DNA of 64,000 nt from Patescibacteria group bacterium (GTDB lineage Bacteria > Patescibacteriota > Patescibacteriia > Veblenbacterales > UBA10138): assembly GCA_043823825.1 (NCBI GenBank), contig JBDRTU010000026.1:43-64042 (forward strand), in the 5' to 3' direction. The position numbers and the translations under genes are program-made. Shown here piece by piece: positions 28,693 to 31,370 of the stretch. Numbering within the stretch: the stretch's first letter is position 1; each line of letters opens with the position of its first letter. The notes under the pieces were generated by a model. The model was not told the origin of the DNA. It ran no database searches and saw only the letters and a list, made by a program, of their open reading frames with translations.

Positions 28693-29589
28693 TTAATGTC
28701 GGTCTGTAAGCTTGTACCATTCTACTAACAAAGGAGAAGCAATAAAAATAGATGAATAAGTACCTATAGCAATACCCACAATTAAAGCTAAAGCAAAATA
28801 GTGAATGGTTGAACCGCCATAAAAAAATAAAGCTGCCAACACCAGTAAAGTTGTTAAAGAAGTATTAATTGAGCGAGTTAAAGTATCGTTGATGCTTTTG
28901 TTAACAACTTGATCAAAACTACCAATTATTCCTCTAAATAAATTTTCGCGAGTTCTGTCAAACACCACGATAGTATCATGCACCGAAAAACCTAACACAG
29001 TTAGTATTGCCGAAACAAATAAACTATCAACTTCAACATTTAGATAATGCCCCAATACAGAAAAAATTCCAACTGTAATTAAAACATCATGCGCTAAAGC
29101 GGCAATAGCTGATAAACCATACTTCCACGATGCAACTGGTTTCGCCACTTTACGAAAGGCCCAAGCAATATACAAAATAATGAAAATCAAAGCAAAACCA
29201 ATTACCCACAAGGCGCGTTTGCCTAATTCGGCGCCTAAGGTTGGGCCAATAGACTCAAAGCGTTTACTTTGAATATCACCATGGTTTTCTCTGAGTAAGC
29301 TCAAAATACTTTGATGCTCATCTTCGGAAACATCGCGAAAACGAAATATCACGTCCTGCTCCCCAGTTGGCTGAATTACTACTCCACCCAGGTTAAAAGG
29401 TTCTAAGGTTTGATGTAATTGATCGTTAGTTGGTCGCTCGTTAATAAAAGCAACCTCTAGTAAAGATCCACCAGTAAAATCAATGCCAAGATTTAGACCC
29501 CAAAAAGATAAACTGACAACGCTGGCAACAATCAGTAGTGTTGAAAAAATATAGCCTATTTTACGATTAGCAATAAAATTTATTTTCAT
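28693..29589 (-). CDS. secF: Protein translocase subunit SecF
   Basis: SecF motifs LGIDFTGGSLLEV and a six-TM core. Overlaps secD by 4 nt. Confidence 0.9.
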   Translation of the reverse strand: MKINFIANRKIGYIFSTLLIVASVVSLSFWGLNLGIDFTGGSLLEVAFINERPTNDQLHQTLEPFNLGGVVIQPTGEQDVIFRFRDVSEDEHQSILSLLRENHGDIQSKRFESIGPTLGAELGKRALWVIGFALIFIILYIAWAFRKVAKPVASWKYGLSAIAALAHDVLITVGIFSVLGHYLNVEVDSLFVSAILTVLGFSVHDTIVVFDRTRENLFRGIIGSFDQVVNKSINDTLTRSINTSLTTLLVLAALFFYGGSTIHYFALALIVGIAIGTYSSIFIASPLLVEWYKLTDRH

Positions 29590-31370
29590 AGTTGCCTTGT
29601 TATATTTTTTTTACTCACACCAAACAAGAAAATCGCGCGTGAAAATTTGTTGCCAGCTACTAAACGTAAAAAAGTTCTAGTAACCGTAATGGCCGAAAAC
29701 ATGCTAATTAAAATACCAATAGATAAGGTAATAGCAAAACCCTTAATCAGAGAGGTTCCAAACCAAATTAAAATTATCGCGGTAATCAAGCTGGAAATGT
29801 TTGAATCACGAATAGAGGTCCAGGCTCGCTTAAAACCCTCTTCAATCGCTTGAGTTAAAGGCTTGCCCATGCGTAATTCCTCTTTTAATCGCTCAAAAAT
29901 AAGAATATTGGCGTCTACAGCCATTCCTACTGATAAGATAAATCCAGCAATACCAGCCAAAGTTAGGGTTACCGACCATAGTTTAAAAATAGCAAAGGTA
30001 ATCAAAGCATAGATAACTAAAGCAACTATTGATAATAAACCAGGCAGCCGGTAATAAAACAACATAAAGAGTGCAACTACAATCAAACCAACAATACCAG
30101 CGAATAAACTTTTTTCTACTGAGACCTTACCTAAAGTCGCATCTACAGTTTGTTGATTAATTAAATGTATTGGTACTGGAAGTGCCCCAGCGTTTAAACG
30201 CTGTGCCAGCTCTTTAGCCTCGACTAAGGTAAATTCACCAGTAATCACTGCTTGCCCGCCAGTAATTTCTTGTTGAACAGTAGGGACACTAATCGGCACA
30301 CCATCTAAGAAAATAGCAACCGGCTTACCGACATTACGACCAGTAATCTCAGCAAATAAATCAGATCCCTCATCATTAAAAGTTAACTGCACTTCAGGAA
30401 TTCCAGTATTGGGATCAAACTGCACTTGGGACCGTTTTAATTGTTTACCAGAAAGACCTGTGCTAATCCATGGATCAACTTGATCAAAAGCAGTACCTCT
30501 TACTAAAATATGGCTAGCCCTGAGCTCTAATACATTTTGCCCGTTTTCTTCAACCTGCCGTTCCCCTGTTTTCTTAATAATATGATAACCAAATTGAGTT
30601 TCTGATAACTCTTTACTTACTTCATCTACTGCTAGCGCTTTCACTGCTTGTTCAAATTCAGGCACCATTACACCCTCTCGAAACCAATCAAGATCACCGC
30701 CTAACGGGGCAGAACCATCTTCGGAAAATTCTTTTGCTAGAGCAGCAAAATCGGCACCCACCACCAAAGCTTTTTGCAATATCTCCTCGGCTAGCTCTTT
30801 AACATTTATTTTTTCTGCCTCATTATCTTGCAATAACTTCCCTTCGTCAGACTCTTTAAATTCTAAAATCGGCGTTTCGCCAATTAGTTGTATGGCCTGA
30901 TTAACATCTTTAATACCAGCGAGCTCCACAATTACACGCCAATTATCGCCCGACTTATTTGTTTGCACAACTGGTTCTGATACACCAAAAAAATTAATAC
31001 GCCGCTCCACCACATCTTTAACACCTTCTACCGCAGCAGCTTCTTCACCAGCCTGAATCTCACTAAGATCGGCTTGGTACACTAGGTGACTACCACCTTG
31101 TAAATCTAAGCCTAATTGCACCTGCCATTTATTCCAAAATGAAGTTCCGGGAATCCAAGCTGGTGCTTTAGGAAAATCCACCAAACCTGTAAAAATAGTA
31201 ATCACCAAAATAACAAACACTAGCCACCATGATTTTTTTCGTGGCGTCATCTTGCCAAACAATACCTTACCTAACCAGAGAAAAGGTTTGCCTAGCCAAA
31301 CTAAAAAACTGGAACCCGAGTCAGTCTCTAACGGGCGATTATTCCTTAAGTTGTCATTACTAGAATTCAT
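29586..31370 (-). CDS. secD: Protein translocase subunit SecD with an inserted parvulin-type PPIase domain
   Basis: SecD P1-base motif [13 protein letters not shown], P1-head motif [29 protein letters not shown], and TM core [22 protein letters not shown]. Between base and head lies [39 protein letters not shown]...FGYHIIKK...LRASHILV, a parvulin domain. Confidence 0.9.
   Translation of the reverse strand: [594 protein letters not shown]

Follow-up and report, generated by a model that had tools for sequence, protein, structure and literature searches.

How proteins that leave the Sec channel reach the folding factors beyond the membrane, where ATP is absent, is an open question, and a secD gene of a Patescibacteria group bacterium bears on it. 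The gene lies in a stretch of 64,000 nucleotides (GenBank assembly GCA_043823825.1, contig JBDRTU010000026.1, positions 43 to 64,042), here called the window, from whose first letter all coordinates are counted. Within its P1 region, the encoded SecD holds a parvulin-type peptidyl-prolyl isomerase (PPIase) domain. Is this domain a genuine and complete parvulin, how widespread is the fusion, and what might a foldase do on a translocation motor? A preliminary description, made from the sequence, had placed the open reading frame (ORF) of 594 residues at 29586-31370, which is exact; the coding strand is minus. We find the architecture to be conserved across a clade of the Candidate Phyla Radiation (CPR), with an inserted domain that is very probably a circular permutant of the parvulin fold.

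The parvulin domain of SecD

Outside the insert, the protein is an ordinary SecD. Pfam scans place SecD_1st (PF21760) at residues 115-175 (E = 6e-16), SecDF_P1_head (PF22599) at residues 305-399 (E = 3e-31) and SecD_SecF_C (PF02355) at residues 402-570 (E = 2e-15). The NCBIfam equivalog for SecD, TIGR01129, is matched over profile positions 1-397 with 397.2 bits against a cut-off of 244.4, the parvulin appearing as a gap in the alignment. Among solved structures, Thermus thermophilus SecDF aligns on both sides of the insert (SecD residues 82-175 with its 31-116, and 306-572 with its 160-426; E = 1e-76), and the full-length AlphaFold model retrieves SecDF (5yhf) as its top Foldseek match (E = 1e-23), in a fold search whose matches are limited to SecDF and RND pumps. 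D486 aligns with T. thermophilus D340, which we take to be the equivalent of Escherichia coli D519, and is invariant in 82 homologues. The motor signatures of SecDF are thus intact in the parvulin-carrying protein, and the ORF likely encodes a functional SecD, for which we predict export stimulation dependent on the proton-motive force (PMF). The preliminary description was right to call the protein otherwise canonical, with P1 base and P1 head, but not in ascribing to it a 12-transmembrane (TM) core: SecD alone has six TM segments, and twelve is the sum of SecD and the adjacent SecF (28693-29589).

The additional ~125 residues (176-300) lie where the chain first passes from P1 base to P1 head, one of two such connections. 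As had been proposed, a parvulin domain sits between the two: Rotamase_3 (PF13616) is matched at residues 181-268 (E = 2.2e-21; 77.0 bits against a cut-off of 22.5) and Rotamase (PF00639) at residues 183-268 (E = 1.4e-17; 64.9 bits against 21.7). The match spans ~86 residues, is not of low complexity and is far beyond chance, and the nearest solved parvulins are 38-50% identical to the insert. A full-length AlphaFold model built on the 82 homologues has a mean predicted local distance difference test score (pLDDT) of 87.9 and a predicted template modelling score (pTM) of 0.65; within it, residues ~183-294 reach a pLDDT of 91-97 and are flanked by stretches below 50 (178-182 and 295-297). Modelled alone (residues 181-296, 28 sequences), the insert reaches a pLDDT of 92.6 and a pTM of 0.84, and it has the four-stranded antiparallel sheet and helices of the parvulin fold. 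Both checks suggested in the preliminary description, profile searches for the domain boundaries and structure prediction for a folded domain, therefore bear out its identification of the insert.

Across the 82 homologues, mean pairwise identity is 0.52 in the parvulin, 0.22 and 0.24 in the two linkers and 0.68-0.73 in the SecD base, head and TM core, while insert length ranges from 126 to 150 residues. This pattern of regional identity and variable length indicates that the parvulin is a selected, loosely tethered module of SecD. The Pfam scan gave no match to a SurA_N domain in SecD; the insert may resemble the PrsA/SurA/PpiD-type foldases in action, without being one of them, as it has no SurA_N/NC host domain.

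The active site was read by mapping SecD on human Pin1, whose sequence as used here agreed with 12 of 12 published residue numbers. The active-site residues H59, C113 and H157 of Pin1 correspond to H287, D218 and H263 of SecD, the proline-pocket residues L122, M130 and F134 to L227, M235 and F239, and T152 and S154 to T258 and F260. All ten tracked active-site and proline-pocket positions are conserved in 71 of the 82 homologues. With Asp in place of Cys113 and an aromatic side chain in place of Ser154, the insert follows the PrsA/Par14 pattern, which points to a parvulin that is not phospho-specific. No counterpart to the phosphate-binding triad K63/R68/R69 was found in the insert, where the aligned residues are R291, D296 and N183; a basic loop of the Pin1 type is missing because the β1-α1 loop does not exist in the permutant described below. 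The SecD parvulin is complete and probably catalytically active, and its conserved active site sets it apart from the parvulins of PpiD and SurA P1, which are catalytically dead.

Occurrence within the CPR

The preliminary description had also called for a survey of homologues, and the insertion recurs in the best of them. Each of the 120 best homologues, which are 57-74% identical and come from many independent projects, has both Rotamase and SecD Pfam domains. A scan of a junction-spanning alignment against one genome per species returned 80 loci, ~46-48 of which encode an uninterrupted SecD with base, insert, head and TM core, and the carriers include closed or near-closed chromosomes, for example OY970357.1. 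Where record titles are informative, they name Kerfeld-, Buchanan-, Komeili-, Uhr- and Magasanikbacteria, Parcubacteria or the 'Patescibacteria group'; NCBI taxonomy places Kerfeldbacteria in the Patescibacteria group / Parcubacteria group. The SecD-parvulin architecture is conserved across a clade of the CPR.

The scan lends no support to an occurrence of the fusion outside the CPR. Several loci carry titles of Gammaproteobacteria, Lysobacteraceae, Binatia or Hyphomicrobiales (L001, L003, L004, L007, L008, L012, L013, L015, L022, L024, L033, L036, L045, L052, L062, L076, L077 and L080), but their SecDs interleave with CPR-labelled ones at up to 83% identity (L003 against L006, a Patescibacteria SecD), so that the titles are probably label artefacts and the deposited taxonomy of these metagenome-assembled genomes (MAGs) is probably wrong. 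When the insert alone was searched against representatives, multi-parvulin SurA-like proteins came out on top, their summed scores exceeding those of single-domain SecD; as clustering at 50% folds most SecD fusions into a few representatives, this search is no measure of the size of the fusion family.

Long-form SecDs of 673-753 residues, from Uhr- and Magasanikbacteria and Parcubacteria, have two successive parvulin units, again between the P1 base and the head (L022, L024, L026, for example L026:3134-5203, L031-L033, L036, L039, L042, L045-L048, L052, L062, L068, L071, L076, L077, L079 and L080). The β4 His is lost from their first unit ('VYVVAK...RASHILI'), and the second retains 'FGYHII', followed by a mostly degenerate strand ('RPRVIYY'). 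In these proteins, permuted units may follow one another in tandem, or a canonical domain may sit inside the hairpin of a permuted unit.

A full-text literature search, with most subscription journals outside its reach, turned up no account of either a SecD-parvulin fusion or a circularly permuted parvulin, in agreement with the preliminary description, whose author model did not recognize the architecture. It is abundant in databases, annotated merely as 'SecD', and an identical copy of the window protein is itself deposited under the name 'protein translocase subunit SecD'. The SecD motor and the parvulin domain are both known; their conserved combination and the domain topology appear to be new.

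Order of strands in the inserted domain

Canonical parvulins begin with β1, which has the motif 'xxASHILV' and the first active-site His, and end with β4, which has the motif 'GYHII' and the second. In Pin1 and Par14, these two strands are antiparallel neighbours, with both His side chains directed toward the active site. The insert in SecD departs from the canonical order β1-α1-α2-α3-β2-α4-β3-β4: RASHILV (residues 284-290) comes after β4, as a β1-type strand ~20 residues downstream of 'GYHIIKK'. The peptide quoted in the preliminary description is present in the order in which it was given; that this order is reversed relative to a canonical parvulin went unremarked.

Several lines of evidence suggest that the displaced strand (β1') completes the fold. 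Profile and PDB matches to the insert begin at α1, at profile positions 27 of 116 and 11 of 97, and the start at 27 of 116 is explained by the reversed strand order. HMMER lays the insert on the first parvulin domain of SurA and runs on into β1 of the second. When residues 278-296 were shifted to the front in silico, the Rotamase_3 score rose from 81.0 to 88.7 bits, coverage of PF00639 grew from 12-96 to 1-96 of 97, and the re-permuted insert matched the active SurA P2 domain end-to-end. Residues 261-275 and 278-291 form a hairpin in both AlphaFold models (full-length and insert alone), and because β1 and β4 are antiparallel neighbours in the known fold, a strand that hairpins back from β4 must fill the β1 slot. 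Sequential alignments of the insert to most single-domain and PrsA/SurA-type parvulins cover just 77-88 residues, and the alignment to 8hm3_B covers 99. The P1 head begins ~15 residues past β1', so this strand cannot be part of a second parvulin domain. Of the 82 homologues, 79 retain H287 and 45 lack the hairpin tip (274-277). We conclude that the SecD parvulin is, with high probability, a circular permutant of its family fold.

A chain that enters at α1, runs through β4 and the hairpin and ends with β1 would have both termini at the position of the canonical β1-α1 loop, a predicted placement that suits insertion into a host loop. We confine the claim of permutation to the SecD inserts and to short PrsA-like proteins of the CPR, where nothing can follow the last strand. 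Calls based on the order of 'ASHIL' and 'GYHII' in multi-domain proteins are misleading and were dropped, among them two PpiD-like candidates (L075 and L078) with a degenerate upstream β1 and a second domain. In two short-form SecDs (L009 and L014), the loop of the β4-β1' hairpin is much longer, which implies that the tip tolerates insertions, and a nested second domain could have entered the long-form SecDs at this place.

The hidden Markov model of the SecD insert also identified the second parvulin of the window, in a PrsA-like foldase (ORF 1103-2200) that databases name 'peptidylprolyl isomerase [Patescibacteria group bacterium]'. The two domains are 39% identical and colinear, including '...FGWHLIK...AASHILF'. 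Further CPR PrsA-like proteins (at L034, L035, L037, L056, L059 and L074) share the tail 'GYHIIKVTEKNGDQVRASHILIK' and reach their C-terminus ~30 residues on, whereas canonical PrsA-type proteins have a helix at this point. Present in SecD and in PrsA-like hosts, the permuted parvulin is a domain variant that the CPR employ in two architectures or more, and it seems to be lineage-wide and undescribed. Core identity of the SecD insert is 0.46 to the CPR PrsA-like proteins against 0.45 to canonical parvulins, which gives no donor direction either way. The idea that the fusion substitutes for a lost free-standing foldase was rejected, as the PrsA-like gene is present in the window.

Table 1 Features of the secD locus and of the PrsA-like gene in the window
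Feature	Position	Strand	Residues	Evidence
PrsA-like foldase (TM anchor, SurA_N, parvulin)	1103..2200	-	365 aa	SurA_N_3, SurA_N_2, Rotamase (Pfam)
Parvulin of PrsA-like foldase	1157-1492	-	237-348	Apparently permuted order
secF, 4-base ATGA overlap with secD	28693..29589	-	298 aa	TIGR00966 288.7 bits, cut-off 160
secD with inserted parvulin	29586..31370	-	594 aa	TIGR01129 397 bits; PDB SecDF 3aqp E 1e-76; Foldseek 5yhf E 1e-23
SecD N-terminal cytoplasmic extension (~40 aa), predicted amphipathic helix 18-38	31251..31370	-		Mean pairwise identity 0.43
SecD TM1, positive 'RKK' patch just before	31176..31244	-	43-65	AlphaFold helix 43-65; sequence
SecD P1 base, N-terminal part (Sec_GG motif, SecD_1st)	30846..31118	-	85-175	PF21760 115-175; T. 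thermophilus SecDF 31-116; identity 0.70
SecD linker 1, variable, low-confidence	30822..30845	-	176-183	pLDDT <50 at 178-182; identity 0.22
SecD parvulin (PpiC-type), very probably circularly permuted	30498..30821	-	184-291	Pfam, PDB matches, AlphaFold, conservation
Parvulin helices			α1 184-201; α2 208-215; α4 237-244	
Parvulin strands			β2 226-231; β3 256-258; β4 261-275 (H263); β1' 278-291 (H287)	
Displaced strand β1' (first active-site His H287 = Pin1 H59)	30498..30539	-	278-291	H287 in 79/82; re-permutation; Pin1 mapping
SecD linker 2, variable, low-confidence	30471..30497	-	292-300	pLDDT <50 at 295-297; identity 0.24
SecD P1 head	30171..30470	-	301-400	PF22599 E 3e-31; T. thermophilus SecDF alignment from residue 160
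SecD TM2-TM6, RND-type core, invariant D486	29646..30128	-	415-575	PF02355; alignment; homologues; AlphaFold

The N-terminal extension of SecD (residues 1-40, with a 'FLxWxxxPFxWLGKxLF' helix before TM1) occurs only in the ~35 closest homologues (Table 1); those without it begin at the equivalent of M41 ('MTPRKK'). Directly downstream of secF, a 232-residue ORF (27960-28658, minus strand) carries a hydrophobic segment at its N-terminus, possibly a signal peptide, and a TM helix at its C-terminus along with a poly-Lys tail; it has no Pfam match and is possibly a surface-anchored protein. Farther downstream (24458-27715, minus strand) are genes for an Rrf2-family regulator, an Fe/Mn superoxide dismutase, a SufC-like ABC ATPase and a SufB/D-family protein. 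SecA is encoded ~4 kb upstream of secD (35648-38368, minus strand), and between the two lie an ABC exporter (31478-33244), a DUF155 protein and two ORFs without Pfam matches (33333-33839 and 34868-35482).

Possible roles and known systems

The P1 head of SecD turns by ~100 degrees between the F and I forms, with a proton wire via the conserved TM Asp, and this rotation is thought to handle emerging polypeptides (PMC8669966). We propose that a parvulin partner is built into SecD of the CPR itself and works on the chain-pulling arm as a foldase or holdase, which is the most economical reading of the sequences and models and one we consider reasonably likely. SecDF draws on the PMF to swing the P1 head, catching unfolded chains as they leave SecYEG and letting them go on the outside. 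Held in the base-to-head connection by two short and flexible linkers, the parvulin would ride on the P1 arm, bind the emerging chains and catalyse their prolyl cis/trans isomerization, or at least hold them, so that pulling and the first folding steps would take place on one machine. We place the parvulin outside the cytoplasm by homology to solved SecDF; its catalytic activity, its action on Sec substrates as they emerge and any link to the movement of the head are likewise inferred. The chaperone-translocon fusion put forward in the preliminary description is supported in this way, with PPIase action at the Sec exit as a prediction.

Several points weigh against this proposal. The permuted topology comes from prediction and sequence logic, not from an experimental structure, and with a linker pLDDT below 50 and a full-length pTM of 0.65 the models do not define how the parvulin is oriented towards the P1 head and SecY. 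The genome keeps a separate PrsA-like foldase and would have a parvulin even without the insert. Well-folded parvulins can also be silent, as in E. coli PpiD and SurA P1; in those two, however, the active-site residues that the SecD insert retains have been lost.

These last points lead to an alternative in which the insert is a catalytically irrelevant chaperone, holdase or docking platform that binds chains or a partner without isomerase chemistry. Such a module would be in keeping with the foldase already encoded elsewhere in the genome, and a structural role, in place of a catalytic one, has been argued for the dual-His motif of Pin1. Precedents are the inactive parvulin of PpiD and the chaperone function of SurA, which is independent of its PPIase domains (PMC9643414). 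A pure scaffold would not be expected to keep the full PrsA/Par14-type set of active-site and proline-pocket residues in 71 of 82 homologues, as PpiD and SurA P1 have not, and we regard this alternative as unlikely. The parvulin might instead mainly tune SecDF mechanics: it would be a strut, a stop or a sensor and bias the swing of the head between F form and I form, without acting on substrates. Its insertion exactly in the base-to-head connection would fit, given that the ~100 degree rotation is central to SecDF function (PMC8669966); yet the linkers are short, poorly conserved (0.22-0.24) and of low confidence, and an insert of 126-150 residues points to a loose tether, while conservation of the catalytic pocket would be left unexplained, all of which makes a mechanical role improbable. 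That the fusion is an artefact, through chimeric assembly, a frameshift-fused gene pair or a decaying functionless passenger insertion, is a natural concern with a MAG and is effectively refuted by the uninterrupted architecture in all 120 best homologues and ~46-48 species representatives, OY970357.1 included, by purifying selection on the parvulin and by a base composition that is even along the whole secD ORF.

Going beyond a foldase or holdase carried on the arm, the parvulin could be mechanically and energetically coupled to SecDF, each swing of the head presenting the chain to the isomerase and then stripping it off, which we think unlikely. If it were true, SecD-parvulin would be an energy-coupled foldase outside the membrane, where ATP is absent, and the 'Rosetta-stone' fusion would imply a functional unit of SecDF and PrsA/PpiD-type parvulins in bacteria at large.

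Docking of foldases on the translocon has been shown only recently (PpiD-YfgM, SurA with the holotranslocon, the Mycoplasma dome). The conserved covalent fusion in the moving arm of the PMF-driven SecDF is independent evolutionary evidence that translocation and folding belong together, as well as a compact, single-polypeptide system in which translocation-coupled folding could be tested. The permuted parvulin illustrates how a fold can be re-wired for insertion into a host loop, and marks a CPR-specific foldase toolkit.

Canonical SecDF, as solved from T. thermophilus (3AQP, 5YHF) and Deinococcus radiodurans (5XAN), shares with SecD of the CPR the P1 base and head, the six-TM RND-type core, the TM Asp and an adjacent SecF; the solved proteins have no foldase domain, whereas the CPR protein has ~125 extra residues (two linkers and the parvulin). 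The nearest relatives of the insert are the parvulins of PrsA from Bacillus and Staphylococcus (4WO7, 1ZK6, 2JZV, 6XD8; 38-50% identity, 1.6-1.9 Å), which share its non-phospho active site, with Asp for Cys and an aromatic residue for Ser154. In PrsA, however, a canonical parvulin with β1 first is set in the SurA_N-type NC chaperone domain of a separate lipoprotein, whereas the SecD insert is probably permuted and has no SurA_N. PrsA acts outside the membrane, as would be expected of the SecD parvulin, and in both cases the envelope is without an outer membrane, in Firmicutes and, as currently thought, in the CPR. The PrsA-like membrane-anchored foldase of the CPR has what appears to be the same permuted unit (α1...GYHIIK-hairpin-ASHILI) in a host made of a TM anchor and SurA_N rather than SecD.

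A functional parallel is the dome of Mycoplasma pneumoniae, another organism with a reduced genome, where PrsA-like Mdp lipoproteins sit on SecDF-SecYEG and substrate density is seen at the active PPIC domain (bioRxiv 10.1101/2025.04.25.650208, 10.1101/2024.09.05.611430). There, the PPIC domains of Mdp444/436/489 are held stably on SecDF above the SecY exit, but as non-covalent, large trimeric lipoproteins, and not as one small parvulin within the SecD polypeptide. Parvulin chaperones also work at the periplasmic face of SecYEG/SecDF in E. coli (PMC9643414, PMC9987972, PMC8669966): PpiD, whose parvulin is inactive, acts with YfgM at the SecY lateral gate of SecYEG (PMC9643414), and SurA associates in transient contact with the SecDF-containing holotranslocon (PMC9987972). 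Both are separate proteins, unlike the SecD fusion. Other bacteria thus recruit the folding helper as a separate protein, whereas in SecD of the CPR it would be hard-wired on the secretion machine.

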